From a bacterium (GTDB lineage: Bacteria; Bacillota_I; Bacilli_A; RFN20; CAG-826): a stretch of 64,000 bases of DNA. Shown here in pieces: positions 3,359-59,631 of this stretch (positions are counted from its first letter, which is position 1; every line of letters starts with the position of its first letter). The notes beneath the pieces were generated by a model. The model saw nothing but the letters and a program-made list of their open reading frames with translations. It did no database searches and had not been told where the DNA came from. The stretch spans positions 28,225 to 92,224 of the forward strand of contig CAVEPD010000003.1 in assembly GCA_963617535.1 (NCBI GenBank), written 5' to 3'. Made by a program: the position numbers and the translations under genes.

Positions 3359-4450
3359 TTATAAGGTAATGCGCTTAATAATTTCAAATAACGAAAAATT
3401 CTCTAAAATCCTAAAAATGCCGTCTATCCCCTTGATCTCCGCTGTTTTTAGCTCTGAATGAAGGTTTTTGAACAGCTTGGAAGGAAAGTCGCTTTCTTCT
3501 AGATAAGGCGCATCTCCTTGGCGAACGATTTCAGGGTCATTTTGCTCCAAAAGATAGGAAACTAAATAACGTCTGAAGTAGATGAGAAGGTCTTCTTCGA
3601 TCCAATAAGATGACTTTTTCGCAGCTCCTTCGACTTGCTTTAAAGCGATATACAAAGGCAGGCCGTCTTCGACGTCGTGATAGATGTCAACGAACAGGTA
3701 ATCGTAAGCCCCTTGCTCGGTATTCTTTGCAAAGGAAATCGCGTCTTGCTCAATGAGAATGATTTTGCCTTCTGGGAAAGAGGGCAGCAGGTGTTCCTTG
3801 AAGAAAGAAATCACGTCTTTGTCGCTTTCGACGATTGTCACGTGGGTCACGCTTTCCTTAATTGAGGCCCGGTAAGCGAAGTAGCCCATCCCCAGGCCAT
3901 AGGTTAGAACCTCTCCATCGCATTCGTCGATGGCTTTCTCCATCGTCTTGATCTCATGGGGGACTAAAGACATCCAAGGTCTTCCGTCCTTTGAAAAGAC
4001 GGGATAGGAGAATCCTTTCTTGGAATAAGCAAAGCTTGGACGTTCCTCAAAATAAGGGGAAGGGCCGACTTCATAGGAAGAATAAGGGAAAAGCTCGCCC
4101 GGAACGACGTTCTTCATTGTTAAGGAAAGCCCCTTTTCATGAATCGATAGACCTTCCAAAACCTTGAAGTAGGGGTCTAGTTCAACGAAAGAAACATCTT
4201 CGATTTGTCGAATATAAGGGAAAAGGCGCTTTTCGCAGTCTTCCTTAAGTCCGTTATCAAGATTGTCGAAGCAAGCGAGGAAAAATTCCTCGAATTCCTT
4301 TTTGAATGAGAAAGAAGGAATTTCGGAGATATTCTCTTCCTGAATTGAGAGATATTCGTTCAAAAGTTCGGCAAGTTCGGCCTCCCTGTCTTGTTTTCTC
4401 TCTAGATTCCGGAGGTATTTTTGGCTTTCTTTGTCGTTAGGAAGAAACAT
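3359..4450 (-). CDS. hypothetical protein with a C-terminal class I SAM-dependent methyltransferase / spermidine-synthase-like fold
   Basis: 363 aa from ATG 4450 (GTG 4456 is an alternative). Contains VLTYGLGMGYFAY (GxGxG-like), VTIVESDKDV and DYLFVDIYHD acidic motifs. Visibly AT-richer than its neighbours. Confidence 0.6.
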   Translation of the reverse strand: MFLPNDKESQKYLRNLERKQDREAELAELLNEYLSIQEENISEIPSFSFKKEFEEFFLACFDNLDNGLKEDCEKRLFPYIRQIEDVSFVELDPYFKVLEGLSIHEKGLSLTMKNVVPGELFPYSSYEVGPSPYFEERPSFAYSKKGFSYPVFSKDGRPWMSLVPHEIKTMEKAIDECDGEVLTYGLGMGYFAYRASIKESVTHVTIVESDKDVISFFKEHLLPSFPEGKIILIEQDAISFAKNTEQGAYDYLFVDIYHDVEDGLPLYIALKQVEGAAKKSSYWIEEDLLIYFRRYLVSYLLEQNDPEIVRQGDAPYLEESDFPSKLFKNLHSELKTAEIKGIDGIFRILENFSLFEIIKRITL

Positions 4451-4567
4451 GGACACGATTATAAGATGGCGTTTTGCTCCCTTAAAGGGAGAAGTACGGG
4501 CTTTTCTTATCGGATTGTGATATAAATAACGCCGTTAACCCTAACTCTTACGATTCAGGAGACCAAA

Positions 4568-7009
4568 ATGAGAAAAATAAGTAAAGTCAGCATCCTTGCT
4601 TTGGGCGCAATCGCGGCCTCGTTGCTCGCTTCGTGTGGCTCTGCTACCTCCGATAGCAGCGGCCAAAGCGCTTCTAGCAGTGAAAAAGAGAATGACTCTA
4701 GTACCGCAGAGAGCATCGATTCCAACGTTAGCTCCATCAAAATCGTCAAAGGCTCAATCTCGACTAGCTTCACCCAAGGGGCCAAAGTCGATTACAACAA
4801 TCTTGCGATTGATCTATTCAATGTTAACAAGACAAAGATCAAAACTTTGAAGTGGGCGGAAAACAAAGACACCATTACTCACACCGAGATCGTCACTTCC
4901 GAGGTGGGCGCGGAGAAGTATTTCACCGTCACCTACACCGAGGGCGAGGCGAAATATGAAGACACCATCCAATATGAGGTTTTGGAACCCACCTATACCC
5001 TCAGCTCTTGGGCTGCTAACGAGAATTACGTCTATACCACCTCTTACACCGCGAACTCCAAAATCGCGACGGACGAGGATAACCTCGAGAAGGGCTTCAT
5101 GAAGAAAGCCACCTTCTATGTGGGCAACATGAACGCGGTGGACTTGCTTCCCTCGCTCAATGGCCTAGACGAGGATTACAACGTCGTCACGCTTAACAAA
5201 ATCCCGACGGGAGCGACCCTTTCTCTTTCTAAAGACGGAACCTCTGTCGCGGTGAACGACTACATCGACAACGCGAATGGCTTCCTAAGCGACGGCCTTC
5301 TTAAATTCAAAAACGACGTCACGGGCGCTTTCACCGTCACGCTTAGCTACCAAGACCTCCCCGACATCGTCTATAACGTTGAAGTGGTGGATGCCTATAA
5401 TGTCAGCAAAGCCACTGATCTCTTCGCTTTCTATACCTCGGTGAACTCTTGGCCCTATAGCGAGGCAATCACCGAGAAAGTCAGGGAATATAAGGCTGAG
5501 CTCAGCCTTCCTGACGCGGAGAATCTTGTCCTCCAAAACGACGTGAAAATCTCTAGAAGCGACCTTCCTGATATCTTCGTTTGGCAAGCAAACGAAACCG
5601 ATGTCTCAGCCGTTGTCGGCTCTTTGAAAGACTGGCTCCGCATCTTCGATCACGAATTCAAAAACGCGGGCGATGTCGCGACGATTTACGGCAACCTCCA
5701 TAGCATCTCGCTTAACGACGACGAGAATGATGAAGACGCTTTCCCGAAGATTCTTACGGATTCTTATACCGGCGAGGCGCAAGCGGAGGGTAAGCCGATT
5801 TCCTCTCACGCCTCTTTGTTCTATGGCTCTTATGGTGCGAACCAAGATCCCTTTGACTGCAAAATCGTCTTCAAAGACCTCCAAGCCACGGGAAATAACG
5901 GCGTCAGCGAAGAGACGACTATCACCGAAGGCGGACCGATGTTCCTCAAAACTGAGATCAACGCCTCTTTTGACAATGTCATCATCTCGAAGTTCTACAT
6001 GGACGCGATGGTAGATGGGCCTGGCAGTTTGGACAGCAAGAAAATCGGCGATAAGTACGTGGCCGCCTCCCTTTCCTTCGATTCCTGCCGCTTCAGCGAC
6101 TCGGCGAATGCTGGGGTCTATATTTATGGCGCTGGCTCGATGGACATCAAAAACAGCCAAATCGTCAAATCCGGCGGGCCTCTTCTTTTCCTCAATCCGA
6201 TCATCGAAAAACTTCCTAGCGATCCGGACCAAGTCATGACCTTCTCAACCAAGCTGGCTACTACCGTCACAATCGACGATGCTTCTTTCCTTAGCAACTT
6301 CACCCAAGGCAAAGGCGGCTGGTTCGAGGCTTACGAAGGGGCGAGCGCCCTTGCAGGGACACTCCAAAGCATGAATAACCTCTTCTCTCCTTATGGCATG
6401 TCTTTCCTTAAAGAAAAGAACAGCATCAACAAATTCAACCTTTTGGCCCTCAATCTACCGATTAGTAGTGGGGAAGGACTTGGCCTTCCTTCCTATGACG
6501 CCGGGGGCACGAACGTCACGATTACCAAAGGTGGGAAGCTGGCCTACAGCACACTTGATGGCTATTTGAACGTTTTGAGCGCCGCTTTCGCCACTCAAAG
6601 CGCCTCTACTAATGAAGAGAAACTTGCTGCGTATACCGCTTACGCGAACGCCCTTTCCGGTACTTTCTTCGGGAATAACCTCGCTTTCGCCAATTACGCC
6701 AATGAGATGGTTTTCACCGCCACAACGAGCGATGGCGAGCATGAGTCGGCGATCGTGAACGTCGATGGGATGAGCGGTGCTTATTACCTCTGCTCCGCCG
6801 AATGCGCGATCAAATCCGCTTTCGCTAGCTATGGAATCACCCCTCCTAACTATGCGCCTAGCGACAAATTCAAGAGCGAGGGCTATCTTGCCTGCACGAT
6901 CAACGGCGATTCTTCCGTTATTAATTCTAGTTCCGTCGTCACGAACCCGCTTAGTTACACGGGCGTTGCCAATTACGGCGTGCTTCTAGGCGACTATTAC
7001 AAAATCTGA
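4568..7009 (+). CDS. large surface lipoprotein, possible parallel beta-helix region
   Basis: Signal peptide plus lipobox: MRKISKVSILALGAIAASLLAS-C-GS. 813 aa, Ser/Thr/Asn/Gly-rich. The central segment resembles beta-helix repeats (FDNVIISKFY, FDSCRFSDSANAGVYIYGAGSMDIKNSQIV). GGAG SD. Confidence 0.8.
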   Translation: MRKISKVSILALGAIAASLLASCGSATSDSSGQSASSSEKENDSSTAESIDSNVSSIKIVKGSISTSFTQGAKVDYNNLAIDLFNVNKTKIKTLKWAENKDTITHTEIVTSEVGAEKYFTVTYTEGEAKYEDTIQYEVLEPTYTLSSWAANENYVYTTSYTANSKIATDEDNLEKGFMKKATFYVGNMNAVDLLPSLNGLDEDYNVVTLNKIPTGATLSLSKDGTSVAVNDYIDNANGFLSDGLLKFKNDVTGAFTVTLSYQDLPDIVYNVEVVDAYNVSKATDLFAFYTSVNSWPYSEAITEKVREYKAELSLPDAENLVLQNDVKISRSDLPDIFVWQANETDVSAVVGSLKDWLRIFDHEFKNAGDVATIYGNLHSISLNDDENDEDAFPKILTDSYTGEAQAEGKPISSHASLFYGSYGANQDPFDCKIVFKDLQATGNNGVSEETTITEGGPMFLKTEINASFDNVIISKFYMDAMVDGPGSLDSKKIGDKYVAASLSFDSCRFSDSANAGVYIYGAGSMDIKNSQIVKSGGPLLFLNPIIEKLPSDPDQVMTFSTKLATTVTIDDASFLSNFTQGKGGWFEAYEGASALAGTLQSMNNLFSPYGMSFLKEKNSINKFNLLALNLPISSGEGLGLPSYDAGGTNVTITKGGKLAYSTLDGYLNVLSAAFATQSASTNEEKLAAYTAYANALSGTFFGNNLAFANYANEMVFTATTSDGEHESAIVNVDGMSGAYYLCSAECAIKSAFASYGITPPNYAPSDKFKSEGYLACTINGDSSVINSSSVVTNPLSYTGVANYGVLLGDYYKI

Positions 7010-7011
7010 TT

Positions 7012-9468
7012 ATGCTCAGCAAGGCCTCCCGAAAAAGCATTCTCCTTTTTGGGGGCCTTTTTGCTATTGCCGCTTTGTCCTTTGGGCTATCTTTCTTAGG
7101 GCATGGCGAATACGCGCTTAATTATCTTCCGTTCATATTGCTCCTTCTTACTTTGATCGGCGCTTCTTTCTTGCTTAAGAGGTTTTTGAAAGATCGCCCG
7201 GCAAGGAGCCATAAGTGGGGATTTTTAACGAACCTAAGCGCAAGATTAGCCAAAAAAGAGAGCCGTTATAAGTTCATCCTTTCTTGCCTTTCGATTGCTC
7301 TTTGCTTGCTTTTCTTTGCCCGTTACTATTTTTATCGGGGATACTTTGAATACACGGATAATTACGGTGGGGCTGGCAGTTTTTACTATTACGACATCTT
7401 GCATCTCGAAAGCAAACTCGTGATGGCGAGGGTCTCGCCTTATTTGCTTAACCGCTTTGAAATGGTCGTTGGGACTTTATCAAACGACTTCTGGGGAGCT
7501 TTGGTGATCTTGTCCTTGGTTAGCGCCTTTTATCTCGATGATTCTTCGTTGATGGTAAGACGCTACATCGGCGCCCCGATATCCCTTCTTTTGACCTTGG
7601 CTTTCCCGATTCTCCTTAAGGGAATCGTGGGACAAGACGCCGTTAGTTACCGCTCCATCCTAATGGGGTTAGAGCTCGCTATCTTGGATTTCTATTATCT
7701 CCACAGTTTTCTCGAAGAAGGGAAATTTAGACTAAGCAAGAAAGAAGTGGGGAAACTCATCTCCATCCTCGTCCTTCTCGTTCTTACGATGACGAGTTCT
7801 TATAGCCCTTCCTTGCTTTTCGGCAGAACCATCACCCTAGGGCAATACAGCCTCACAAACCCCCATGACCCGGAGAACATGTCCCACCGGATCTTCATCT
7901 ACCTCGCCTTCATCTTGCCCATCCTTTATTTCGTTTTCCTCTATCCGATGAGCAAAAGGGATAGGAGAGGCGTCCTCCTTCAAATCTCCCTGGGCACGTT
8001 TTTAGGCTACATCTCCATCAACCGTTATGACATCTGGACGAGCCTCTCGACCTGGCCTTTGCACCTTTGCAATACGGCGATGTACACGATGCCCATCACC
8101 TTGCTCTTCATGAGCTATGGGCTATATTATTTCACCTTCTTCATTAATGTTTTGGGCGCCTTCTTTGCTTTGACGATGCCTAATTTCTCCGAGAGCCTCG
8201 CGATTTTCGACCCTGAGATCCTGGCTTTCTACATCAACCATCTGCATGCTTTCTTCATGCCTGTGGTCATCGTGCTGCTAGGGGTTTACGAGCGTCCTAA
8301 GATCAAATACTTCGTTTACTCTCAAATCGGCTTCTTCGTCTATTTCGCCTTGGTGATGGGGGTGAACACGGTATTGACCGCGAAAGGGATTAATAGCGAC
8401 TTCTTCTTCATCAACAGCGACTTCATCGCCGATAAGCTAGGGGAAGGGGCGAAGCGCCTTTTCAAGACAACGTTAAGCTGGGAATCGGGCGGGCTTACCT
8501 ATACCTTGCATCTAGCTTACGACATCGTCTATTACCTTGTTTACGTCGTGCTGGCCTTGGGGATGTGGTTCTTATACGAATTGCTCTTCCGCGTGAGCGA
8601 TGAGCTCGTCGCCATCAAGGTGGCGAAAGCCAATAGCATCAGCAGGCACGAAGCCTATTTAGCGATCTCAGCAGGAGGAAAAGCCATGAGCAATGAGACC
8701 AATCTTACAATCAGCCATCTTTCCAAGAAGTACCACGGGAATGAGAATTTTGCCGTGAAGGATTTCTCCTTGTCTTTAGAAGGGGGCAAAATCTATGGCT
8801 TCCTTGGCAAGAACGGTGCGGGAAAGAGCACGATCATCAAGTCCGTCGTCGGCATCCATGGCTTTGACGAGGGGAATATTTCCGTCTGCGGGCACGATGT
8901 GGTGGAAGAGCCTTTGGAGGCGAAGAAAGAGATCGGCTTCGTCCCGGATAACTATGCGCTTTACGAGAATCTTACCGGCAGGCAATACATCAGCTACATC
9001 GCCGATCTTTATCGCGTCAACAAAGCCCAGAAGGAGGAAATCGAGAAGAACCTCGTCGCCAGGCTGGAATTAGAGGCGCGTTATGACAAGCCGATGAAGA
9101 CCTACAGCCACGGCATGAAACAGAAAATCACCATCATTGCCGCCCTCATCCATAAGCCCAAGATCTGGATTCTCGATGAGCCGATGACGGGCCTCGACCC
9201 CAATTCCATCTATCAGATCAAAGAATGCATGAAAGAACACGCGAAAGAAGGCAACATCGTCTTCTTCTCAAGCCACATCATCGACGTCGTGAAAAACCTC
9301 TGCGACGAGGTGATCATCATCAAAAGGGGCACTCTCATCAGGAGAATCAACCTTGATGAGAAACCCGAGGAAAGAGATGTCCTCGAGGAGACTTTCCTCA
9401 CCCTCACTAGCGATAGCGAGGCGGAGGCTAGCCTCTTGCTCGAAGAAGAGAAAAAGGAGAGAGCGTGA
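7012..9468 (+). CDS. fusion protein: polytopic membrane domain (about 555 aa, YwaF/TIGR02206-like WPLHLCN segment) + ABC transporter ATP-binding domain
   Basis: A single 818-aa ORF. The C-terminal part has Walker A GKNGAGKST, signature YSHGMKQK and Walker B ILDEPMTGLD. The N-terminal part is multi-TM. An internal AGGAGG (8673-8678) plus ATG 8686 lies exactly at the ATPase domain boundary. Confidence 0.8.
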   Translation: MLSKASRKSILLFGGLFAIAALSFGLSFLGHGEYALNYLPFILLLLTLIGASFLLKRFLKDRPARSHKWGFLTNLSARLAKKESRYKFILSCLSIALCLLFFARYYFYRGYFEYTDNYGGAGSFYYYDILHLESKLVMARVSPYLLNRFEMVVGTLSNDFWGALVILSLVSAFYLDDSSLMVRRYIGAPISLLLTLAFPILLKGIVGQDAVSYRSILMGLELAILDFYYLHSFLEEGKFRLSKKEVGKLISILVLLVLTMTSSYSPSLLFGRTITLGQYSLTNPHDPENMSHRIFIYLAFILPILYFVFLYPMSKRDRRGVLLQISLGTFLGYISINRYDIWTSLSTWPLHLCNTAMYTMPITLLFMSYGLYYFTFFINVLGAFFALTMPNFSESLAIFDPEILAFYINHLHAFFMPVVIVLLGVYERPKIKYFVYSQIGFFVYFALVMGVNTVLTAKGINSDFFFINSDFIADKLGEGAKRLFKTTLSWESGGLTYTLHLAYDIVYYLVYVVLALGMWFLYELLFRVSDELVAIKVAKANSISRHEAYLAISAGGKAMSNETNLTISHLSKKYHGNENFAVKDFSLSLEGGKIYGFLGKNGAGKSTIIKSVVGIHGFDEGNISVCGHDVVEEPLEAKKEIGFVPDNYALYENLTGRQYISYIADLYRVNKAQKEEIEKNLVARLELEARYDKPMKTYSHGMKQKITIIAALIHKPKIWILDEPMTGLDPNSIYQIKECMKEHAKEGNIVFFSSHIIDVVKNLCDEVIIIKRGTLIRRINLDEKPEERDVLEETFLTLTSDSEAEASLLLEEEKKERA

Positions 9469-11201
9469 GCACGGCAAAACTAAGAAAAACGAGTGTCGCC
9501 TCCTTTTTCAAGGTTGACTGGCGGGCTTTTAAAGTGCTCGTCAAGATGCTGCTTGCCAATTCCTTGTCCTTGGATTTGAAGCACAACAAGAAGAAGGCGA
9601 TTATCAAACTGCTTTTAAGCGTCTTGGCTTTCGCGGTTATCGCCGCGCTTTCTTATGCCTTCTTCTACATTTGCATCCGATTCAATATCTTCTCCCTCTT
9701 GGCCTTCGTCCCGATGGATGTGCCTTCCATCGTGGTGACGATTTTGCTTTTATTCTCTTTCTTCTCTTCATTAGGCAGGGTGACCGAGGACCTTTATTTC
9801 GCGAATGACAACAAGGTTTTGCTTACCTTCCCGACGAACGGGAACACCCTCTTCCTTTCTAGGCTCGCCGTGTGCTTCTTGAACACCTATCTTAGGTCAC
9901 TGCTATTAGAAATTCCCTTCCTCATCGGCTATTTTGCCGTCAGCGGATACCCCGTTTATATGTATTTTGTCTTGTTCCTTGTTTGGGCGGTCATCGATTT
10001 GGTCTTGATGCTTCTTTGCTCTTTGCTCTCAATCCCGGTTTACTATGGCAAGAAATATCTTAGGACCCATGGATTCGCTAATACGATTGTGCTTAGCCTA
10101 TTCATCGCCGTCATCCTCGCTTTGTGCATCTTCGTGATTGCCATCATCCCGAGCAACATCGACATCTTCTCGAACTGGGGCACGTATTTCGCGAAGATCC
10201 AAAACGGTTTGGTGTTCTACCGGACGAAGCTCGGCTTCTTTTACAGGGCTTCGATGCTTTATCTTGGAAACTTCACGGGCTTCAGCTTCGCTTATTTCTC
10301 CAAGGGAGGACTCGCTGGGCTATATGCTTTCTTAATCCTTTTAGGCTCCATCGTTTTGCTTTACCTTGCCTCTTTGGCTCTTGCTAGCCCTCTTTATCTC
10401 CGCCTTGCTAGCCAAACGGGGGAGCTACAAGGGAAGAGTGGGAAGAAAGACTCAAACAAAGGAGGCAGGACCCATTCCCCGTTCGTCTCGCAATTAAAGA
10501 AGGAGGCGATCCTCTTCTTCAAGGATTCCTCTTTTTCCTCGCCTTATCTAGGGATTTTCCTCGCTTTGCCTCTTCTTTTATCCTTGCTAGCCAAGCTCTT
10601 CGGAGCGATGGACCTCAATAGCAGGGGTGAAGGATACGTGCAGGTCGTGCTTCTGCTCATCGGCTTATTGCTTTCTTTGAGCGCGAACGCGGGCATCGCA
10701 AAAATCTATAGCCTCGAAGGAGGGGCGTTCAAATTAAGCAGGACCTACCCTCTTAAAGGCGCAGCAATCATCTCGAGCAAGCTAATCATCCCTGGGACGA
10801 TTGGGTGCTTGAGCCTACTCGCCTCGCTTATCGCCCTAAACTCCATCCGCCCAGAGATGGCTAATGGGAATACCTTCATGGGAATCGGGGCCATCCTTAT
10901 TTACATAGGCCATCTTCTTTATAGCGCGGGATTAGATTTCACGAGTCCAAAATCGAACTTTGGGGATGCCTCTTTCTTCAACAGTTCGGAGAATCGTTCG
11001 ACGATTATGGGATTCATAACCGCCTCTCTTCTTTCCGTCTTCTATTACCTTTACTTCCAAGACCATATTCTTTGGCTGCCCACCATCGAAAGCACCGCGG
11101 GGCTCAAAGTTTTCCTGATTTCTGTCCTTTATCTCGGGCTTAACGTTTTGCTTTACGTCCGCAAGATCAAATACATCTACAAAACGGGGGAGGAGTTATG
11201 A
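9465..11201 (+). CDS. putative ABC exporter permease (multi-pass membrane protein)
   Basis: 578 aa with more than 10 hydrophobic segments. GTG start overlaps the upstream ATPase stop by 4 nt, implying operon coupling. Confidence 0.7.
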   Translation: MSTAKLRKTSVASFFKVDWRAFKVLVKMLLANSLSLDLKHNKKKAIIKLLLSVLAFAVIAALSYAFFYICIRFNIFSLLAFVPMDVPSIVVTILLLFSFFSSLGRVTEDLYFANDNKVLLTFPTNGNTLFLSRLAVCFLNTYLRSLLLEIPFLIGYFAVSGYPVYMYFVLFLVWAVIDLVLMLLCSLLSIPVYYGKKYLRTHGFANTIVLSLFIAVILALCIFVIAIIPSNIDIFSNWGTYFAKIQNGLVFYRTKLGFFYRASMLYLGNFTGFSFAYFSKGGLAGLYAFLILLGSIVLLYLASLALASPLYLRLASQTGELQGKSGKKDSNKGGRTHSPFVSQLKKEAILFFKDSSFSSPYLGIFLALPLLLSLLAKLFGAMDLNSRGEGYVQVVLLLIGLLLSLSANAGIAKIYSLEGGAFKLSRTYPLKGAAIISSKLIIPGTIGCLSLLASLIALNSIRPEMANGNTFMGIGAILIYIGHLLYSAGLDFTSPKSNFGDASFFNSSENRSTIMGFITASLLSVFYYLYFQDHILWLPTIESTAGLKVFLISVLYLGLNVLLYVRKIKYIYKTGEEL

Positions 11202-26749: not shown

Positions 26750-27202
26750 ATGAGAGTTTTGATTCAGGAAGTTCTTTCTAGCTCCGTCTCGATTGACGGA
26801 GAAGTCGTCTCTAGTATCGGCAGGGGCGAGCTTTTGCTCGTCGGCTTCACGCAGGGGGACGATTATCTGACCATGGAGAAAATGGCCAAAAAGATTATGA
26901 AGGCGAGGATTTTCCCGGACGAGAACGGGAAGACGAACCTCTCCCTTTCTCAAATCGGCGGAGAGATCCTTTTGGTCAGCCAATTCACCTTGTACGGCTC
27001 TTTGAAAGAAGGGAACCGTCCCTCTTTTGTGGATGCCTCTAGGCCAGACGAGGCAAGAGAGCTTTACAACCAATTCGTCGCCTTAATGAAACAGGAATTC
27101 CCTAATCTTAAGACCGGGGTCTTCCAAGCAGACATGAAAGTCAGCCTCGTGAACGACGGGCCTTTCACCTTGCTGCTTGATTCCAAGGAGCTATTCCAAT
27201 GA
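26750..27202 (+). CDS. dtd: D-aminoacyl-tRNA deacylase
   Basis: Start MRVLIQEV, with SQFTLYG and NRPSF motifs. 150 aa. Confidence 0.9.
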   Translation: MRVLIQEVLSSSVSIDGEVVSSIGRGELLLVGFTQGDDYLTMEKMAKKIMKARIFPDENGKTNLSLSQIGGEILLVSQFTLYGSLKEGNRPSFVDASRPDEARELYNQFVALMKQEFPNLKTGVFQADMKVSLVNDGPFTLLLDSKELFQ

Positions 27203-28326
27203 AAGTGATGATCGGACTTAGCGGTGGGGTCGACAGCGCGGTCGCCGCATATCTATTGAAAGAACAGGGCTACGAGGTCGTCGCGGGCTTCATGAGGAAC
27301 TGGGATGCGCTCGCGAATAACGATTATTTGGGCAACCCCACGATCAACGCCAATCAGTGCCCTCAGGAGAAAGACTACCAAGACGCGAAGAAAGTCGCCG
27401 AGAAACTGGGGATCCCTTTGCTTCGAGCGGACTTCGTGAAGGAATATTGGGATTCCGTTTTCACCTATTTCCTGAACGAATACAAGAAGGGAAGAACCCC
27501 CAATCCCGACGTTTTCTGCAACAAGTACATCAAGTTCGATTCGTTTCTGAAGTTCGCGAAATCTCAGGGTTGCGACGCTATCGCGATGGGCCACTACGCG
27601 AAGAAAGAATCCTTCGAAGGCAAGGAATACATCTATAAGGCCTTCGACAAAAACAAGGACCAGTCCTACTTTTTGTCCCAAATCAATGAATCCCAGATCG
27701 CTAGCTGCATCTTCCCTTTAGGGGGGATCACCAAGCCTCAGGTTAGAGAGATCGCCCATCGTTTGGACCTCGAGTCCGTGATGGACAAGAAAGACTCGAC
27801 TGGCGTGTGCTTCATCGGAGAAAGGGACTTCAGGAAGTTCCTTCAGAATTATCTTCCTGCAAAGAAGGGCAAGATAGTCGAAGGCAAAACAGGCAAAGTG
27901 GTAGGCGAGCATTGCGGGGTTCTCTATTACACGATCGGCCAGCATAAAGGCTTAGGGATAGGTGGCATCGCCGGAGAGAAAGAAGGCGCCTTCTTCATCT
28001 ACAAGAAAGATGCTTCCAACAACATTCTTTACGTTGCGAAAAGCGACGATGAGGAATTGCTTTTGAGCACTTCCTGCCGCCTTGATAACATCAACTGGGT
28101 TGGCGAAAGGCCAACCGAACCCATTCACGTCGGAGTGAAGTTCCGCTATCGTCAGCCAGACCAGTTCTGCACCTTACGTTTTGAAGGTGACGAAGTTATT
28201 TTGACCTATGATTCCCCCGTCAAAGCGGTGACCCCCGGCCAAATCGGCGTCTTCTATGACGGCGAGAGGATGCTTGGGGGAGGCATCATCTCCGCGGTGT
28301 ATCGCGGAGATGAGAGAATCGATTGA
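27199..28326 (+). CDS. mnmA: tRNA 2-thiouridine(34) synthase
   Basis: GLSGGVDSAV PP-loop, NPDVFCNKYIKF and DSTGVCFIGE motifs. 375 aa. Confidence 0.93.
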   Translation: MKVMIGLSGGVDSAVAAYLLKEQGYEVVAGFMRNWDALANNDYLGNPTINANQCPQEKDYQDAKKVAEKLGIPLLRADFVKEYWDSVFTYFLNEYKKGRTPNPDVFCNKYIKFDSFLKFAKSQGCDAIAMGHYAKKESFEGKEYIYKAFDKNKDQSYFLSQINESQIASCIFPLGGITKPQVREIAHRLDLESVMDKKDSTGVCFIGERDFRKFLQNYLPAKKGKIVEGKTGKVVGEHCGVLYYTIGQHKGLGIGGIAGEKEGAFFIYKKDASNNILYVAKSDDEELLLSTSCRLDNINWVGERPTEPIHVGVKFRYRQPDQFCTLRFEGDEVILTYDSPVKAVTPGQIGVFYDGERMLGGGIISAVYRGDERID

Positions 28327-28362
28327 GGCCGGGTGACTTTCAAAAAATTGTTTGCCCAGAGG

Positions 28363-28908
28363 CTAAAAAGGCAAGTCTTCTTCAAATTGGGCTTCTTCCG
28401 CTTCGTCCAGTCTTTGTAGTTGCTTTGCCGCGGCATTCAAGATGTTCTTTTTAACTATTTCGGCATCAGGGTAATCCCCTGATTTGGCGTTGAATCTTTC
28501 CAATTCGAAATAAAGGTCTTTCAACGCTTTCGCATGTTTGGAAACGACTAGGTAGGCCCCTTCTACATAGCCACTTTCTCTTCGATTGAAATAGCCGCGC
28601 ATTTCAAAAATTCCATATTCTATTAAAGCGGCGAAACAATTAACCATTGCCTCTGGCTTGCTGTGAGCGGTTGCGACGGGGCGCATTGAAGAAGGCCCGT
28701 AATAAAGGCTATCAAGAGTGATGCCTAATCCTTCCGCAATTCGCGCCAGAGTGATTGTGTTAGGTATTTTTCTTCCGTTTTCGTATTCGGAAAGCTGACT
28801 TTTGCTCATCTCGATTTTACTTGCGAAACCGGACTTGGACAGCCCTAGATTTTCCCGGCATCTTTGGATATTAGATCCTATTCTTTTGCCAACGTCGTCT
28901 TCGTTCAT
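28363..28908 (-). CDS. XRE-family HTH transcriptional regulator with an uncharacterised C-terminal domain of about 110 aa
   Basis: LGLSKSGFASKIEMSKSQLSEYENGRKIPNTITLARIAEGLGITLDSLY is a canonical HTH_3/XRE segment. ACGGAGG SD. The gene is AT-richer than the flanks. Confidence 0.85.
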   Translation of the reverse strand: MNEDDVGKRIGSNIQRCRENLGLSKSGFASKIEMSKSQLSEYENGRKIPNTITLARIAEGLGITLDSLYYGPSSMRPVATAHSKPEAMVNCFAALIEYGIFEMRGYFNRRESGYVEGAYLVVSKHAKALKDLYFELERFNAKSGDYPDAEIVKKNILNAAAKQLQRLDEAEEAQFEEDLPF

Positions 28909-29096
28909 GGATAACCTCCGTTTTACTTTAAGTATTATCCATACCGAACCCCTTGTTTCCTAATGAGAGAACGGAATTTTTTATAAATAAGCAAAAAAGT
29001 ATCGATACAGTGCTGTTTATTTTTTTATAAAATATAAATAACCATCCCGAAAATTCGCTTGGACAACAGGCCAAAAGAAAGGAGTTTGTATTTTGC

Positions 29097-29366
29097 TTAT
29101 TTTGAAACAAGGAAATCTACCCATTCCTCAAAAGTGAACTGCACCTTGCTCATTCCCTTAACGAAGATGTCCAAATAGCCTTTTAGATATTCTTTTTCCT
29201 GCTCTGTGTCGAAGGTCTCTTGAGGATAGTTGTCTTTCAAAAGCCAAAGAGTCATGATCCACATGGCTTTTTCTTTTTCGCTAAGCGACTTGGACGACTC
29301 GAAACTTTCATTCCCAAATTCTTTGGTGATGTTGTTCCTATATTTTTCTGCTATGTCAATTTTCAT
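29097..29366 (-). CDS. 89-aa acidic protein, candidate immunity/antitoxin partner (copy 1)
   Basis: Start overlaps the upstream ART-like gene stop by 11 nt. Glu/Asp/Lys-rich, no TM segment or signal peptide. An identical second copy lies at 30264-30533. Confidence 0.7.
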   Translation of the reverse strand: MKIDIAEKYRNNITKEFGNESFESSKSLSEKEKAMWIMTLWLLKDNYPQETFDTEQEKEYLKGYLDIFVKGMSKVQFTFEEWVDFLVSK

Positions 29367-30033
29367 GGTTTTTGTTTCCTAAGATTTTAACTTTGATGCG
29401 TTTGAATTTTAATCCATTCCAAACGCAATTCGTGATTTCTTCGATTTGGTAGAGAGGAGCCGTTATAAGTATTTCTTTTTCTGAGGCGTTATTTGAAATT
29501 CCCTCTATAGGGAGAGCGTTATAACCCTTTGGAAGTTTACAACAAAACACTATGCCTACCTCGTCTTCGCTTCTAGTCTTCGCGGCGCTCACAGCTCTTA
29601 AATAGGTTCGGCTCGTGGAACATATCAAAGAGCCCTCTGTAGGGAGGTCGAGCAAAAATCTGAGCAAGAAATTCTTTTCATAAACTTCTCGCGGTACGGT
29701 TATTCCGCGATAAGAGAGGACGGAGGATTTCAATTTGTGCTTTGAAATAGCTGAGATGAGACAATCTTTGAGTTTTTCGTCGGATTTCGACATTCTGTTT
29801 TCTCTGATCGCCTTGTTTAAAGCTTTTCCGATTCGAATATCTGTGTATTGATTGACTGAACTGAATTCTTCTTTGGAAAGAACGCTGAGCAACTCGCTCT
29901 TTGAACAGGATTCTGAGGCTAAGTAGTCGCTCGCTGTATCGTCTTTTGCGTATTGACCGCTTCTTTCGCCATTTCCTTTCGGGACGTAAGATTGCAGCTT
30001 GTTCCCGCCGCCTTTTTTTAAGCTGTCAGCCAT
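29356..30033 (-). CDS. ADP-ribosyltransferase-like protein (R-S-E class, C3/VIP2/iota-like signature), copy 1
   Basis: 225 aa from ATG 30033, with AAAGGAGGTG SD 7 nt upstream. Carries NQYTDIRIGKALNKAIRE (YTxxxxxxxxNxxxR helix), SYRG (R109), CSTS (S139-T-S) and SEKE (E185-x-E187, nt 29481-29473). No signal peptide or trafficking domain. Confidence 0.75.
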   Translation of the reverse strand: MADSLKKGGGNKLQSYVPKGNGERSGQYAKDDTASDYLASESCSKSELLSVLSKEEFSSVNQYTDIRIGKALNKAIRENRMSKSDEKLKDCLISAISKHKLKSSVLSYRGITVPREVYEKNFLLRFLLDLPTEGSLICSTSRTYLRAVSAAKTRSEDEVGIVFCCKLPKGYNALPIEGISNNASEKEILITAPLYQIEEITNCVWNGLKFKRIKVKILGNKNHEN

Positions 30034-30263
30034 TGGAACCACCTCCTTTAGGGTGCTTGAGATTTGCTACGATCACATTCTAAAAAAAGGAAAAATTTCG
30101 ATGTAGTCACGAGAATATCGAATTGCAATTCGCTATTTTGGTTCAGTTTTCGGAAATGTGGTTTCACTATTTGGCGAAGTGGTTCGCAACTGCTGAACAA
30201 CCGTTTATGATGCGTTCCCCAAACATTGGACAAAAGGCCAAAAGGAAGGAGTTTGTATTTTGC

Positions 30264-30533
30264 TTATTTTGAAACAAGGAAATCTACCCATTCCTCAAAA
30301 GTGAACTGCACCTTGCTCATTCCCTTAACGAAGATGTCCAAATAGCCTTTTAGATATTCTTTTTCCTGCTCTGTGTCGAAGGTCTCTTGAGGATAGTTGT
30401 CTTTCAAAAGCCAAAGAGTCATGATCCACATGGCTTTTTCTTTTTCGCTAAGCGACTTGGACGACTCGAAACTTTCATTCCCAAATTCTTTGGTGATGTT
30501 GTTCCTATATTTTTCTGCTATGTCAATTTTCAT
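30264..30533 (-). CDS. 89-aa acidic protein, candidate immunity/antitoxin partner (copy 2)
   Basis: Protein identical to copy 1. Same 11-nt overlap with the upstream gene. Confidence 0.7.
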   Translation of the reverse strand: MKIDIAEKYRNNITKEFGNESFESSKSLSEKEKAMWIMTLWLLKDNYPQETFDTEQEKEYLKGYLDIFVKGMSKVQFTFEEWVDFLVSK

Positions 30534-31200
30534 GGTTTTTGTTTCCTAAGATTTTAACTTTGATGCGTTTGAATTTTAATCCATTCCAAACGCAATTCGT
30601 GATTTCTTCGATTTGGTAGAGAGGAGCCGTTATAAGTATTTCTTTTTCTGAGGCGTTATTTGAAATTCCCTCTATAGGGAGAGCGTTATAACCCTTTGGA
30701 AGTTTACAACAAAACACTATGCCTACCTCGTCTTCGCTTCTAGTCTTCGCGGCGCTCACAGCTCTTAAATAGGTTCGGCTCGTGGAACATATCAAAGAGC
30801 CCTCTGTAGGGAGGTCGAGCAAAAATCTGAGCAAGAAATTCTTTTCATAAACTTCTCGCGGTACGGTTATTCCGCGATAAGAGAGGACGGAGGATTTCAA
30901 TTTGTGCTTTGAAATAGCTGAGATGAGACAATCTTTGAGTTTTTCGTCGGATTTCGACATTCTGTTTTCTCTGATCGCCTTGTTTAAAGCTTTTCCGATT
31001 CGAATATCTGTGTATTGATTGACTGAACTGAATTCTTCTTTGGAAAGAACGCTGAGCAACTCGCTCTTTGAACAGGATTCTGAGGCTAAGTAGTCGCTCG
31101 CTGTATCGTCTTTTGCGTATTGACCGCTTCTTTCGCCATTTCCTTTCGGGACGTAAGATTGCAGCTTGTTCCCGCCGCCTTTTTTTAAGCTGTCAGCCAT
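30523..31200 (-). CDS. ADP-ribosyltransferase-like protein, copy 2
   Basis: Protein identical to copy 1. Same SD and ATG context. Confidence 0.75.
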   Translation of the reverse strand: MADSLKKGGGNKLQSYVPKGNGERSGQYAKDDTASDYLASESCSKSELLSVLSKEEFSSVNQYTDIRIGKALNKAIRENRMSKSDEKLKDCLISAISKHKLKSSVLSYRGITVPREVYEKNFLLRFLLDLPTEGSLICSTSRTYLRAVSAAKTRSEDEVGIVFCCKLPKGYNALPIEGISNNASEKEILITAPLYQIEEITNCVWNGLKFKRIKVKILGNKNHEN

Positions 31201-31537
31201 TGGAACCACCTCCTTTAGGGTGCTTGAGATTTGCTACGATCACATTCTAAAAAAAGGAAAAATTTCGATGTAGTCACGAGAATATCGAATTGCAATTCGC
31301 TATTTTGGTTCAGTTTTCGGAAATGTGGTTTCACTATTTGGCTAAGTGGTTCGCAACTGCTGAACAACCGTTTATCGAGAAGGTTAATCGATTGTGATAT
31401 GCGTATTTTGGATAACGGGGCGTTTACGATTTAGACAAAGAACCAGTTTGAAATATGTTTGGCTTTTTGGGAACGCGAAAAGCGTTTTCTTTCGACTCGT
31501 TCTTTCTTGGAAGGCCCTTTTGATTTACCATTCTCGC

Positions 31538-32944
31538 ATGGCAAAAAAGAAGACCTCTCCAAGCAAAAGTGGCTTGACCAAAAAACAGAAAAAGGAAATC
31601 GCGAAAGCGGCGAAGAAGAACCCCGTCGCTGCGATTATCATCGTGATTGCGGTGGTGGCAATCGTCGGCGTGGCAGCTTTCTTCCTTTTGAAAAACAAGC
31701 CATGGGAGAGTGGTGGCACTTCTAGCGATTCTCAAACTAGCGTTTCCCTAAGAAGCGAAGAGTCCACATCTGGGCAAGAAGTGGTTTCCTACGTCGAAGG
31801 CGACTGCGACCCCATCTCGATCCATTTTATTGATAGACAAGAGCAATACTCCGGCGACTCGGTATATATCAAAGTAGGGGACAACGATATTTTAATCGAC
31901 GCTGGCGCGAGAAAGGGAAGTGCGAAAGCAATCGAAACATATTTGGAAGATTCCTCTAGAAGCGATTACGTCTCCGATAACAAGCTTGAATACGTGATCA
32001 CCACACACGCCCACCAGGATCACATCGCAGGCATGATGGGAACTTCGAAAACGGGGATTCTCTATCGTTACAAAGTCGACAACCTCATCGATTTCTCTTA
32101 CGTGGACGCTCAGGATGGCAAGAACGTCATCAATAACGCGGATCCTTCGAATTCCAACGACGATTCCCGCTTCGTCTCGTATGAAGGGACCTATACCTCG
32201 GGCTCCAGCAACAAGAGCAATCCCAATTCTACGGGTCTCTATAAAGATTATGTTGAAGCAAGGAACTACGCGATTGAAAAAGGAACCACCTGGCATACCG
32301 CTGGGGAACTTTGCAATTCCTCCACGGATTATTCTTATACCGTCACCCTTGGAAAAGGCGTGACGATGACCCTTCTTTACTCTTTCTTCTATGACCACAC
32401 CTCCGCGGAGATAACCTCCTTGGAAAGTAGCTACAAACGCTCGAACTTCTCGGATCAAAACGATTACTCCGTATGCCTTCTCTTTACCCAGGGGAGCAGA
32501 CATTTCCTTTTCACCGGGGACGCGGAAGCCTATGCCGAGCATAGCCTTGTGAAATACAACAATCTTCCTAATGTCGACCTTTTCAAAGCGGGACACCATG
32601 GCTCTTATACCGCTTCTAGCGATGAGCTTCTTGACGCCGTGGACCCCGATTTATGTGTCGTCACCTGCTGCGCGGGCAACAAGGAGTACGCTAGCGATGC
32701 CAATCACACTTTCCCTGCGCAGGAATTCATTAACCGCATCGCGAAGCACACCGACAGGGTCTACGTGACGACCCTTGGCTCCTTTGAGGACAAGAGCCAT
32801 TACGAGGCTTTCAACGGGAATGTTGTGGTGAGCTACGACCCTTCTTGCGCGGAGACCCTCACTTGCTCGAACAACCAGACGAAGCTAAAAGACAGCGCTT
32901 GGTTCAAGGCAAATCGGACTTGTCCAGAGCAATGGGCCTCCTGA
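31538..32944 (+). CDS. membrane-anchored MBL-fold metallo-hydrolase, ComEC C-terminal-domain-like
   Basis: Lys-rich N-terminus plus one TM segment (VAAIIIVIAVVAIVGVAAFFLL). HAHQDHIAGM (HxHxDH), FTGDAE and KAGHHGS motifs as in the ComEC MBL domain. The ORF-track start at 31394 is rejected. Confidence 0.8.
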   Translation: MAKKKTSPSKSGLTKKQKKEIAKAAKKNPVAAIIIVIAVVAIVGVAAFFLLKNKPWESGGTSSDSQTSVSLRSEESTSGQEVVSYVEGDCDPISIHFIDRQEQYSGDSVYIKVGDNDILIDAGARKGSAKAIETYLEDSSRSDYVSDNKLEYVITTHAHQDHIAGMMGTSKTGILYRYKVDNLIDFSYVDAQDGKNVINNADPSNSNDDSRFVSYEGTYTSGSSNKSNPNSTGLYKDYVEARNYAIEKGTTWHTAGELCNSSTDYSYTVTLGKGVTMTLLYSFFYDHTSAEITSLESSYKRSNFSDQNDYSVCLLFTQGSRHFLFTGDAEAYAEHSLVKYNNLPNVDLFKAGHHGSYTASSDELLDAVDPDLCVVTCCAGNKEYASDANHTFPAQEFINRIAKHTDRVYVTTLGSFEDKSHYEAFNGNVVVSYDPSCAETLTCSNNQTKLKDSAWFKANRTCPEQWAS

Positions 32945-48028: not shown

Positions 48029-49462
48029 ATGGCGAACAAGCACCTCTACAAATACACGGACGAGAACTACCTCACCCGTTCCGAGCTCCGCGTGGCGATG
48101 CGGAGCAGTCTCATCAACGATTTCTATCGTGAAATCCTTGAATATCGCAAGGCCAACGCGGAGAAAACGCCGCTTTTAGGGACTAACCGAGCGATCCTTT
48201 CCCTCACCAAAACCGAGGCCACAAGGGCCAAACTCGATTTCTTTGAGACGCGCCTAACCGGCTATTCAAATGCCTTGACGGATCTTTCTTTGAATCCCTC
48301 CGCGGAGAAGAGCTTTGATAAAGAAAGCCTCCTCTTAATCTTGATGGATGCCGCAAAGCTCATCTCCTGCCCCCTTTCTGAGCTCACCGCGAAGGCGATG
48401 CTCAATGGTTTCTTCAAACCGGGGGAGAATGAGAAAGAAGCCTTGCTCTATCGCTTTTACCTGAATCTCAAGAAAAAAGCCCCGTCTCCTAGCGAGGATA
48501 GCCTCGGCGAGCTGCGCTTCGCTTTGCTTGGGCACGACGAGGTCTCTTCTTTCTACCGCACGAGCGACTTCCACACCATCTACACGACCCAGATCGTCGA
48601 CAGAAACTATAACTACGCCCCGTGTGGGGAGATCGAGGGAATGATGGAAAGCCTTTTCTCTTTCCTTTCCTCTTCCTCTTACCCCGTTGGCATGAAGGCT
48701 GTCCTCAGCCTTTATTACATCTATTTCGTGAAGCCCTTCGAGGAGAATAACGAGCTCATCGCGACTTCTTTCGCTAGGGAAATCCTTTCTTCTAATGGGA
48801 TTAGCGGGGCCGCCTATTTGCCTTTTGAGGCTTTGCTTCAAAATAGCGATAAGCTCAAAGACGTGCTTTTGGAAAGCCAGAAGGAGAACGACCTCACTTA
48901 CTTCGCTTTCTATTGCTTCGATCGGCTTAGCGTCTACTTTGATAAGGTCCTCTCGCGAATCTCTGAGCTAAAAGCGGAGACGGTGACGAAAGAATTCGTC
49001 GAGATCCCAAAGGAAGAGAAAGAGGAGGCGAGCGAAGAAATCGCCGAGACAGCCCCTGTTCTCGAGACGAAAGAAGAGGAGATCCCCCCTTCGCCGCCTG
49101 AAAAAGCGCCTTCGAAAGTCCCCTTGCTAAGCGATGAGGAGCGGAAAGCCTTCCTAGAAAGCAAAGGGAAGAGCGCGGTGACCTCGCCTGGCTCCTCGCT
49201 TAGCGACAAGGAAGTGAAGGAGACCGCGAAGTATCTTCTGGAGACCAATCCCTTATTGAGGAAAAAGCAGGCCCTCTTCTACGCTTCCCATTGCACGATC
49301 GGGCGCTTCTACACGATCCAGGATTTCAAGAAAGCCGCCCGCTGCGCCTATGAGACCGCCCGCACATCGATGGATGGGCTCGCGGAACTTGGCTTCTATG
49401 AGAAGAAGCAAATCAAAAACAAATTCGTCTACACGCCCATCAAACAAGGAGAGACAAAATGA
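48029..49462 (+). CDS. hypothetical protein: degenerate Fic-like core + Glu/Pro/Lys-rich linker + C-terminal winged-helix
   Basis: YYIYFVKPFEENNELIATSFAREIL (48731-48757) aligns to the Fic HPFxxGNGR motif but lacks the His and GNGR. The C-terminal FYTIQDFKKAARCAYETARTSMDGLAELGFYEK looks like a wHTH. Confidence 0.5.
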   Translation: MANKHLYKYTDENYLTRSELRVAMRSSLINDFYREILEYRKANAEKTPLLGTNRAILSLTKTEATRAKLDFFETRLTGYSNALTDLSLNPSAEKSFDKESLLLILMDAAKLISCPLSELTAKAMLNGFFKPGENEKEALLYRFYLNLKKKAPSPSEDSLGELRFALLGHDEVSSFYRTSDFHTIYTTQIVDRNYNYAPCGEIEGMMESLFSFLSSSSYPVGMKAVLSLYYIYFVKPFEENNELIATSFAREILSSNGISGAAYLPFEALLQNSDKLKDVLLESQKENDLTYFAFYCFDRLSVYFDKVLSRISELKAETVTKEFVEIPKEEKEEASEEIAETAPVLETKEEEIPPSPPEKAPSKVPLLSDEERKAFLESKGKSAVTSPGSSLSDKEVKETAKYLLETNPLLRKKQALFYASHCTIGRFYTIQDFKKAARCAYETARTSMDGLAELGFYEKKQIKNKFVYTPIKQGETK

Positions 49463-59573: not shown

Positions 59574-59631
59574 CACCTTTTTGGGGCATGAAGCGATTTT
59601 CCTCTTTATTAATAGGGTGAGGAGACAAGAA

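Follow-up and report, generated by a model that had tools for sequence, protein, structure and literature searches.

A rare ADP-ribosyltransferase gene and its small partner gene form a putative toxin-neutraliser cassette in a recombining two-slot array of gut Bacilli

The DNA analysed in this study, a 64-kb stretch of contig CAVEPD010000003.1 (assembly GCA_963617535.1) that we call the window, carries an accessory insert between mnmA and a gene for a metallo-beta-lactamase (MBL)-fold hydrolase. In this insert a gene for a 225-aa ADP-ribosyltransferase (ART) is followed by a gene for an 89-aa partner protein, the pair is present twice, and a gene for an XRE-family regulator lies beside it. The 225-aa protein is placed by its profile score, catalytic signature and predicted fold among the ARTs of the Alt/VIP2 class with an R-S-ExE signature. 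A toxic ART held in check by its partner is likely, and this core is common to the two leading readings of the locus. Our preferred reading, adopted tentatively, is that the insert is a conflict cassette of a toxin and a neutralising partner, of the toxin-antitoxin (TA) or abortive-infection (Abi) type. The enzyme class and the toxin-neutraliser logic are known; the family and the partner fold are new, and the two-slot recombining architecture is unusual. The features of the insert are as follows (ORF, open reading frame; SD, Shine-Dalgarno).

28327-31537, minus strand: accessory insert, flanked by the mnmA stop (28326) and the MBL-hydrolase start (31538)
28363-28908, minus strand: XRE-family regulator, 181 aa (ORF listing)
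28909-29096, minus strand: AT-rich spacer from partner-1 to XRE, with an imperfect palindrome at 28985-29022
29097-29366, minus strand: partner-1, 89 aa (ORF listing)
29356-30033, minus strand: ART-1, 225 aa, with its ATG after AAAGGAGG
30034-30208, minus strand: upstream control region of unit 1, with palindromes, a TAGAAT -10-like box and the SD site AAAGGAGGTG
30209-30225, minus strand: inter-unit junction of 17 nt, AATGTTTGGGGAACGCA, overlapping the unit ends
30264-30533, minus strand: partner-2, protein identical to partner-1 (ORF listing, copy comparison)
30523-31200, minus strand: ART-2, protein identical to ART-1 (ORF listing, copy comparison)
31201-31375, minus strand: upstream control region of unit 2, with elements as in unit 1

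The ORF listing and direct reading placed the insert between mnmA (27199-28326, plus strand) and the MBL-fold gene (31538-32944, plus strand), which is followed by alaS, and the transcription order on the minus strand is ART-2, partner-2, ART-1, partner-1, XRE. All the genes of this minus-strand block named in the first-pass annotation are present, and its lower GC content, noted there from spot counts, was confirmed (0.407 over 28363-31393 versus 0.505 in the left and 0.511 in the right flank). The ART start ATG lies eight bases after the SD site AAAGGAGGTG. The partner ATG lies inside the last ART codons and gives an 11-nt overlap with the ART stop (ATGAAAATTGA); the partner is indeed acidic (pI 4.87), as had been proposed for this translationally coupled small protein. 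The strong SD sites that were thought to set the island apart from its neighbours do exist for ART and XRE (the latter with its own site, ACGGAGGT), but they are not island-specific: among 41 native ORFs, an SD of 5 nt or more precedes 16 and none precedes 21, in a tally whose mechanical start calls inflate the "none" class. Base-by-base comparison at an offset of 1,167 resolved two units of 1,150 bp, 29059-30208 and 30226-31375, with a period of 1,167 bp. The copies differ at three positions (29067, 29078 and 30176), all non-coding, and they are joined by 17 unrelated bases whose sequence is unique in the window.

The assignment of the enzyme was consistent across profile, sequence and structure searches. 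The 225-aa protein scored 33.1 bits against Pfam PF03496 (ADPrib_exo_Tox; gathering cut-off 23.4, E=4.6e-8), and phmmer against PDB sequences matched VIP2 and Plx2A with YRG, STS and SEKEIL in register. Foldseek gave a probability of 1.0 and E=6e-7 to 1e-4 to Plx2A, C2-I, CDTa, VIP2 and C3, and Certhrax was also found with a probability of 1.0; the alignment identity to these exotoxins was just 12-22%. The AlphaFold model behind this search is of moderate quality, with a mean pLDDT of 63, a core at 70-88, and low values in residues 1-41 and in the ADP-ribosylating turn-turn (ARTT) loop. The catalytic signature, aligned to VIP2, reads Y-R109-G, S139-T140-S141 and E185-K-E187. R109, S139 and E187 are invariant and E185 is kept in at least 90% of the 21 family members, down to 30% identity. 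PF03496 is the only Pfam domain in this basic protein (pI 9.2), with no LXG, WXG, MuF, Rhs or other trafficking domain, its N-terminus is hydrophilic, and it has no signal peptide or transmembrane (TM) segment (maximum KD19 0.99). The ART fold was thus recovered, and the earlier description of a short, cytoplasmic C3/VIP2-like ART was supported by Pfam, the PDB sequence search and Foldseek and by the lack of a signal peptide or TM segment. The canonical ARTT loop, X-X-phi-X-X-E/Q-X-E, has an aromatic residue at position 3 (PMC7827354). The loop of the present enzyme is S-N-N-A-S-E-K-E; its position 3 is Asn (N182) and is variable across the family, so target recognition should differ from that of characterised relatives. 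A Glu at the sixth position of the loop goes with arginine specificity (PMC7827354), and arginine is therefore the predicted modified residue.

Three parts make up the ART: an N-terminal motif, which is conserved, a variable-length linker and the catalytic domain. The Gly-rich motif spans residues 6-28 and reads K-x-GGG-x2-Q-x-Y-x3-G-x-G-x2-SG-[QE]-Y, with K6, Q14, G26 and Y28 invariant across 21 diverse ARTs. This three-part build speaks for the main rival account, an interbacterial or otherwise delivered toxin-immunity system, in which the ART would be exported or packaged by an unrecognised route via its Gly-rich tag to poison neighbours that lack the 89-aa immunity protein, and the two-slot array and orphan partners would be an immunity repertoire against the toxins of related strains. 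We consider that account rather unlikely, and it is weighed below wherever evidence touches it. It gains from a related basic-Gly-aromatic motif, [PH][RK]-x3-7-G-[QRK]-[FYW], which lies just before the ART domain in multi-domain proteins, one of them 1,154 aa long, and stands at the N-terminus of several unrelated short ARTs, and it loses from the lack of a signal peptide, a TM segment or any of the trafficking domains just named. The motif carriers seen so far, moreover, are all ARTs with no alternative toxin domains among them, no dedicated motif search having been made. Examples of the related motif are HPRGNKNNKGQF and PRDEHGRW, which resemble the family's PKGNGExSGQY and occur among the distant ART matches P0042, P0047, P0078, P0130, P0134, P0154 and others; no account of this related motif was found in the literature searched. 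The narrower proposal that the tag is a delivery or packaging signal for an unrecognised export route of reduced-genome gut Bacilli, and the module a new, minimal polymorphic class of ART toxin-immunity systems with an immunity protein of novel fold and an immunity array of several recombining slots, is doubtful. Distant short ARTs of phages were uninformative as a lead on the motif, because those matches cover the catalytic domain alone. Export by a double-glycine leader and C39 peptidase was suggested by the GGG motif and by the C39 gene found at 59581-60855, and it was rejected: the putative leader has about nine residues and departs from the consensus generally known for such leaders.

For the partner, an AlphaFold2 (AF2) model built from a 29-sequence alignment predicted a four-helix fold with a pLDDT of 93.7 and a pTM of 0.85. 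This fold had no match in PDB (best E=4.5) or BFVD, the protein belongs to no family in Pfam, PADLOC, PHROGs or NCBIfam, and its profile retrieved nothing from PDB sequences. The core motif, MW...WLLKDNYP...FDT...FT..EW, is unusually conserved. No match to a DNA-binding domain was found in Pfam, NCBIfam or PDB. The partner is too small and too helical for a macrodomain or ARH hydrolase, so that neutralisation, if any, would act by binding. Small immunity proteins of the binding type are known for gut ART toxins, namely in Bxa-Bsi (PMC11699363), and this precedent counts for the toxin-immunity alternative.

Comparison with other genomes, whose loci are given by number, showed that every intact ART examined is directly followed by a partner homologue (the window, L004-L008, L092, L096-L099, L103 and L104), and this linkage holds down to 37% ART identity. 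The pair also occurs at other chromosomal sites, with 37-48% ART identity. In L008 it stands with a divergently transcribed helix-turn-helix (HTH) gene, in L096 there is no HTH gene at all, and the short contig L092 holds the pair only. L097-99 and L104 share the order divergent HTH, ART, partner and a second partner 75-81% identical to the first, and in L007, where the module is at the mnmA site, XRE is missing. The partner is also found where no working ART accompanies it. An orphan partner with no ART within 7 kb (L094/95) adjoins a MADS mad3-like ATPase pair and a Schlafen/AlbA-type (SLFN/AlbA) gene. In L100-102 the partner sits beside a decayed ART remnant, with SoFic, PDC-S01 (E=5e-110) and a type IV restriction-like (mREase_IV-like) helicase as neighbours. 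The ART is thus decayed beside an intact partner by a frameshift in L103 and as a remnant in L100-102, and a chimera in L006 is a further case. Partner-b of L103, next to the frameshifted ART-b, has a ratio of nonsynonymous to synonymous divergence (dN/dS) of 0.14, and the sister-species loci L005 and L010 carry an intact ART-b; across every copy with an estimable dS, extra and ART-less ones included, partner dN/dS is 0.12-0.23. Module GC is below host GC wherever measured, and no secretion, phage or MuF genes were found in the window or in the other module contexts read.

These patterns bear on what the partner does. The first-pass annotation had offered the architecture as one of toxin-immunity, TA or Abi modules; of that claim, a putative toxin-neutraliser pair agrees with the orphan and extra partners, the decayed ARTs with intact partners and the swapping of cassettes. 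Partners that lack a working ART (the orphan of L094/95, the extra copies of L097-99 and L104, partner-b of L103) would suit an immunity repertoire, and a decaying TA is also expected to lose its toxin first, so that toxin-first decay does not discriminate between the two. The same partners count against the idea that the 89-aa protein does not inhibit the ART but is required for its folding, activity or delivery, as a chaperone, an adaptor or a specificity subunit, in a module that could be toxic or regulatory. Strict co-occurrence and translational coupling with the ART would be expected of such a subunit, the unusual conservation of both the partner core and the ART N-terminal motif would suit a generic docking pair, and there is a precedent in CmdA, which is needed to fold CmdT (PMC11618068). 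A dedicated chaperone would, however, be useless where the ART is absent, frameshifted or a remnant, and there the partners are kept under purifying selection; extra partner copies are also hard to explain. We therefore hold this explanation improbable.

The cassettes differ between strains at a fine scale. L098 and L104 are nearly identical in uvrB (dS 0.05) and HTH (dS 0.01), and differ by a dS of 0.47 in ART, 0.96 in partner-1 and 0.34 in partner-2, a comparison that indicates swapping of cassettes between near-identical strains. Such sharp allelic differences are also what the toxin-immunity alternative predicts. The sister-species locus L006 has an array of pair a, pair b and then XRE, and the alleles of class b, found in L005, in L010 and as the second pair of L006, have reached synonymous saturation (dS at least 2), which marks class b as an old paralogue. 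ART-b of L006 (8001-8672, P0009) is chimeric, with the first ~42 XRE codons (MNQDEISQRIGSNIQRCREELHLSKSGFASKIKMSKSQLSE) fused at LSEEEF, and its product has no ART N-terminal motif. By its sequence this chimera is a recombination scar inside a two-slot array, with the breakpoint at the start of the ART domain.

L103, which is conspecific with the window (MnmA 99.7%, MBL 98.3%, XRE 97.8%, ART 99.1% and partner 100% identity), has an intact c pair followed by a b unit in which the ART is frameshifted and the partner intact. Over the island, the 17-nt junction and both upstream regions included, identity between the window and L103 is 98-100%, except in a tract of about 29100-29990, where identity falls to 58-70% (approximate boundaries, from sliding identity in 100-nt bins). 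L103 has this junction at position 4807; L001, L004-L007 and L010 lack it. Judged from these alignments, the two-slot array and its junction are older than the window strain. Its slot-1 coding tract was most likely overwritten by the slot-2 allele through gene conversion; this direction is favoured by the [a][b] array of the sister species, and the overwriting accounts for all three inter-copy mismatches being non-coding. That a c,c array instead received a b tract from outside is less likely. ART-b of L103 shares its first 28 residues with the c type, which puts a breakpoint directly after the N-terminal motif. This breakpoint and the one at the ART domain start in the L006 chimera are both in favour of a toxin-immunity system. 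A recent de novo tandem duplication was rejected, since L103 shares the array and junction and has a diverged allele in its second slot. The pair is accordingly not simply "amplified in tandem", as first described; an old two-slot array has been homogenised in the window strain. Assemblies with a single unit (L001-L003) may be real deletions or short-read collapse of a c,c array.

The insertion site was examined with MnmA as the probe in 80 species-representative genomes, and the island and flank proteins were compared with all loci by tblastn. The nearest genomes were metagenome-assembled genomes (MAGs) labelled Candidatus Enteromonas, uncultured Mollicutes or Bacilli. The island was found only where the flanks were very close (MnmA at least 97%, AlaS 90-100%). 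In species with MnmA at 75-85%, the MBL gene begins ~50-300 bp after mnmA, alaS follows, and there are no island genes; such empty sites include L011 (MnmA 85%), L012 (83%), L013-15, L020, L023, L027 and L037. The comparison of the mnmA-alaS interval suggested by the first-pass annotation therefore found the block absent from the next-nearest species, with mnmA directly before the MBL gene, and by these alignments the block is a genuine accessory insertion, restricted to one narrow clade whose members are gut Bacilli resembling 'Ca. Enteromonas'. The surroundings of the island contained no integrase, tRNA or phage gene. Allele a of L006 differs from the window by a dS of 0.64 in ART and 0.56 in partner, within the flank range of 0.45-0.76, so the island has co-diverged with the chromosome inside the carrier clade, and for the same reason a recently acquired island was rejected. 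Its dN/dS is 0.14-0.20, versus 0.02-0.07 in the flanks.

Such vertical inheritance in the carrier clade (ART dS within the flank range), together with purifying selection (ART dN/dS 0.14) and a chromosomal site among housekeeping genes, could also suit a non-toxic endogenous regulatory ART of the DraT-like kind that modifies a host protein reversibly, with the partner as modulator, XRE as an ordinary regulator and the low GC as a mark of old acquisition. We regard this as quite improbable. An ADP-ribosylhydrolase or macrodomain that could undo the modification is absent, the module is very unevenly distributed (~21 clusters in 1.8 billion proteins, and absence from the nearest species), and allele swapping, orphan partners and repeated ART pseudogenisation are the behaviour of a conflict system.

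Several side observations concern the same interval. In L017, L029, L043, L048, L062 and L089 it holds 3-6 kb of unrelated cargo at native GC, with lipoproteins, ABC transporters and flavodoxin-like genes, and it varies in content over the clade at large. The idea that it is a defence hotspot in distant relatives was not supported, given this cargo of lipoproteins and ABC transporters with native GC. The start of the MBL hydrolase is ambiguous: the longest ORF begins at GTG 31394 (516 aa), gene calls in relatives give 466-474 aa, in keeping with ATG 31538 or a nearby start, and the choice alters the right-hand intergenic size of the island (31394-31537). The MAG records of L010, L055, L058 and L073 are titled Parasutterella excrementihominis, Oscillospiraceae, Gemmiger formicilis or Sodaliphilus sp.; records of this kind with a Bacilli-type mnmA locus are probably mislabelled or contaminated bins from one 'cleanbin' dataset.

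The family is rare. A word-indexed search of 5.8 billion proteins gave 11 ART relatives and 4 partner relatives, and a HMMER profile search of 1.84 billion cluster representatives gave 21 ART clusters at E<=1e-30 (~217-257 aa), below which the E-values jump to ~1e-13 for generic ART domains. A profile made from diverse partners raised the partner family to 29 members, and a scan of metagenome contigs with the ART profile added one further true family member, L092. All family members came from gut or rumen-type metagenomes or MAGs. Neither ART nor partner has a family in PADLOC-DB v2.0.0, PHROGs or NCBIfam, and no description of the module was found in the literature searched. The statement that the block cannot be assigned to a named system thus holds for both proteins in these three catalogues, the coverage of defence catalogues extending to 2023.

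We also asked what the viral databases say of a stranded phage or mobile-element remnant, a moron or head-packaged Alt-like effector with its inhibitor that no longer works as a system. ARTs of the Alt/VIP2 clade are typically phage-borne and head-packaged (PMC5512222, PMC9503650), one weak viral match (L090) is a stand-alone ART in a head-gene module, and the low module GC would suit such an origin. On the other hand, tblastn of ART and partner against 50,697 phage records (E<=1e-3) and 72,556 plasmids gave no match, and the ART profile run over 2.9 million viral contigs gave two marginal domain-level matches, with 30-36% identity over part of the domain. Neither integrase, tRNA nor phage gene lies nearby, and the genes are intact and under purifying selection. 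This origin is very unlikely.

The regulator contains an N-terminal Cro/CI HTH (~residues 10-70; Pfam HTH_3, E=2e-13) whose closest solved relatives in a PDB profile search are ICEBs1 ImmR, DdrO, SinR and P22 C2. The C-terminal domain of ~100 aa had no match in that search, Pfam gives HTH families only, and the PADLOC matches are generic HTH models only. An HTH regulator is adjacent in three of the five intact-module chromosomal contexts; its C-terminal domain is homologous between L008 and L098 and weakly alignable with that of the window XRE. The XRE protein with an extra domain that had been listed as part of the module is therefore present here and a frequent companion, but a dispensable one, absent at L007 and L096. 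Between the window (28363-28908) and L001 (9126-9671) the XRE gene has seven substitutions with a dN/dS of ~0.95, in strains whose ART is 99.6% and partner 100% identical. Five of the substitutions (A94V, I96T, M102K, R103H and G104D) cluster in the C-terminal domain, which may be a fast-evolving sensor or interaction surface.

Upstream of unit 1 a palindrome, GCGAACCACTTCGC, lies at 30174-30187, and its copy in unit 2 is imperfect (TTAGC, mismatch at 31343). A second palindrome with the core CGAATTGCAATTCG lies within 30109-30142 (unit 1) and 31276-31309 (unit 2), and a TAGAAT -10-like box precedes the SD site in each unit. These control elements are conserved among the carrier genomes. A consensus promoter scan showed no enrichment over shuffles, and so we speak of putative operators and promoters. 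The spacer 28909-29096 is identical in the single-copy relatives L001-L003 and is a possible terminator plus XRE promoter.

How a cassette of the TA or Abi type would work can be proposed from these elements, and we infer that the ART is toxic and that the partner neutralises it by binding, as well as the operator of XRE and both trigger and target. XRE would bind the GCGAA...TTCG palindromes upstream of each unit and keep expression low, and the ART and partner would be made together as an inert complex in which the partner binds the enzyme. If the supply of partner failed, or the partner were titrated or degraded (by phage infection, locus loss or stress), free ART would be released. It would then use NAD+ to ADP-ribosylate an essential protein, presumably at arginine, and the cell would arrest.

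This type is ranked first because no delivery apparatus or trafficking domain was found in any context, and because the HTH regulators and the defence-gene neighbours fit it; both are more typical of TA or defence modules than of toxin-immunity systems, and no secretion-system or phage genes lie beside any context read. As in type II TA, an adjacent and co-oriented toxin and small partner gene form one operon at every intact locus read. Several observations weigh against this ranking. The partner has no DNA-binding domain, unlike the autoregulating antitoxins of type II; the toxin-first gene order is less common in that type; and the module can do without XRE, which L007 and L096 lack. A second partner gene after the pair (L097-99, L104) is more typical of secreted toxin-immunity loci, and two diverged pairs in one array (L006, L103) are likewise more toxin-immunity-like. 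The conserved, disordered N-terminal motif has no obvious role in a purely intracellular toxin, and a recombination breakpoint lies just after it. The window site itself is not a defence island. As regards the enzyme, the non-aromatic N182 in the ARTT loop and the only moderate model (mean pLDDT 63) also count on this side.

The module was compared with the known systems that share one or more of its parts. The C3-like, VIP2, iota and C2-type exotoxins (Plx2A, C3bot, VIP2, C2-I, CDTa) have the same ART fold and R/S-T-S/E-x-E signature, and the C3-like enzymes likewise consist of a single ART domain of ~200 aa. Unlike these C3 and binary toxins, the ART of the module has no signal peptide, no binding or translocation component and no N-terminal adaptor domain, and the ORF listing gave no B-component gene near it. 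It has instead an Asn at the ARTT aromatic position, a dedicated downstream partner and a conserved disordered N-terminal motif, and it is chromosomal in a MAG of gut commensal type, not in a pathogen. The phage T4 enzymes Alt, ModA and ModB and the MuF-fused ARTs belong to the same ART clade, and the T4 enzymes are likewise short and stand-alone and, as predicted for the module enzyme, have their substrates among the bacterial proteins inside the cell. Behind MuF toxins, too, lies a small immunity ORF (PMC5576092). The module differs in having no phage context, no MuF domain and no similarity to phage records at E<=1e-3, and MuF phage polymorphic toxins were rejected on the absence of the domain, of phage genes and of phage-record matches.

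Among TA and defence systems, CmdTAC, DarTG, ParST and Res-Xre/MbcTA combine, as proposed for the module, an intracellular NAD-dependent toxin with an adjacent proteic neutraliser, and ParST and Res-Xre also have an Xre-type HTH protein with an additional domain. CmdT is an ART with an H-Y-[E/D/Q] signature that needs a SecB-like chaperone (PMC11618068). CmdTAC was rejected because a SecB-like gene is absent and the module enzyme belongs to the R-S-E class. In DarTG the antitoxin, DarG, is a macrodomain hydrolase, and this system was rejected since no DarT or macrodomain match was found in Pfam or PADLOC and the partner is an 89-aa helical protein. ParT, MbcT and Res are RES-domain toxins whose antitoxin is the Xre protein itself, with a C-terminal domain of the DUF2384/COG5642 type; these systems were rejected because Pfam gives only PF03496 for the toxin and only HTH families for XRE. 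The module thus differs from the ART-type TA systems in a toxin of the R-S-E class, a separate 89-aa putative neutraliser of novel fold and a dispensable XRE.

The interbacterial systems Tre1-Tri1, Bxa-Bsi/BAH and the Listeria ART-ARH pair 8za7 come close in another way, for they contain an R-S-E ART toxic to bacteria with the immunity gene directly downstream. Bsi is an inhibitor of the binding type and so resembles the putative neutralisation by the partner, and orphan and multiple immunity genes are typical of such loci, as in the module. Interbacterial ART toxins have delivery domains or lie in T6SS, T7SS (type VI and type VII secretion system) or prophage loci, whereas the module has none of these, and many of their immunity proteins are ADP-ribosylhydrolases, which the partner is not. 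Measured against the polymorphic toxin-immunity systems sensu Zhang et al. 2012, the module has the small downstream gene and the orphan or arrayed partner genes; no recognised N-terminal trafficking domain (Pfam) or secretion genes were found in the contexts read.

Pairs of ART toxins and protein neutralisers are established in TA, phage defence and interbacterial competition. To these the present family adds an R-S-E enzyme of the Alt/VIP2 class as a putative stand-alone cytoplasmic cassette toxin, and a partner with a confidently predicted fold that has no structural relative. It is also a compact natural system in which near-identical strains show overwritten slots, decayed putative toxins and persisting partners. 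Should the partner prove to be an inhibitor, it would be a new way to block an active site of the C3/VIP2 type. If the module defends against phage, it would be an uncatalogued Abi system from an uncultured gut lineage with a reduced genome, and if the N-terminal tag is an export signal, it would point to an unknown delivery route. The general impact is moderate, since this rare family is restricted to metagenomes of gut and rumen.

The rest of the 64-kb window is ordinary housekeeping DNA, and no tRNA genes and no Rfam families at gathering score were found in the window as a whole. About half of the ORFs in the window have no recognisable SD, by mechanical start calls. The gene at 59581-60855 (plus strand) encodes a 424-aa protein with an N-terminal Peptidase_C39 (bacteriocin-processing) domain and no ABC-transporter domain in the ORF. 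Four ORFs, at 4568-7009, 9465-11201, 3359-4456 (minus strand) and 48029-49462 (813, 578, 365 and 477 aa, respectively), gave no Pfam match at E<=1e-5, and two of the four flank a fusion of ABC_tran and a TMEM164-like domain at 7012-9468.

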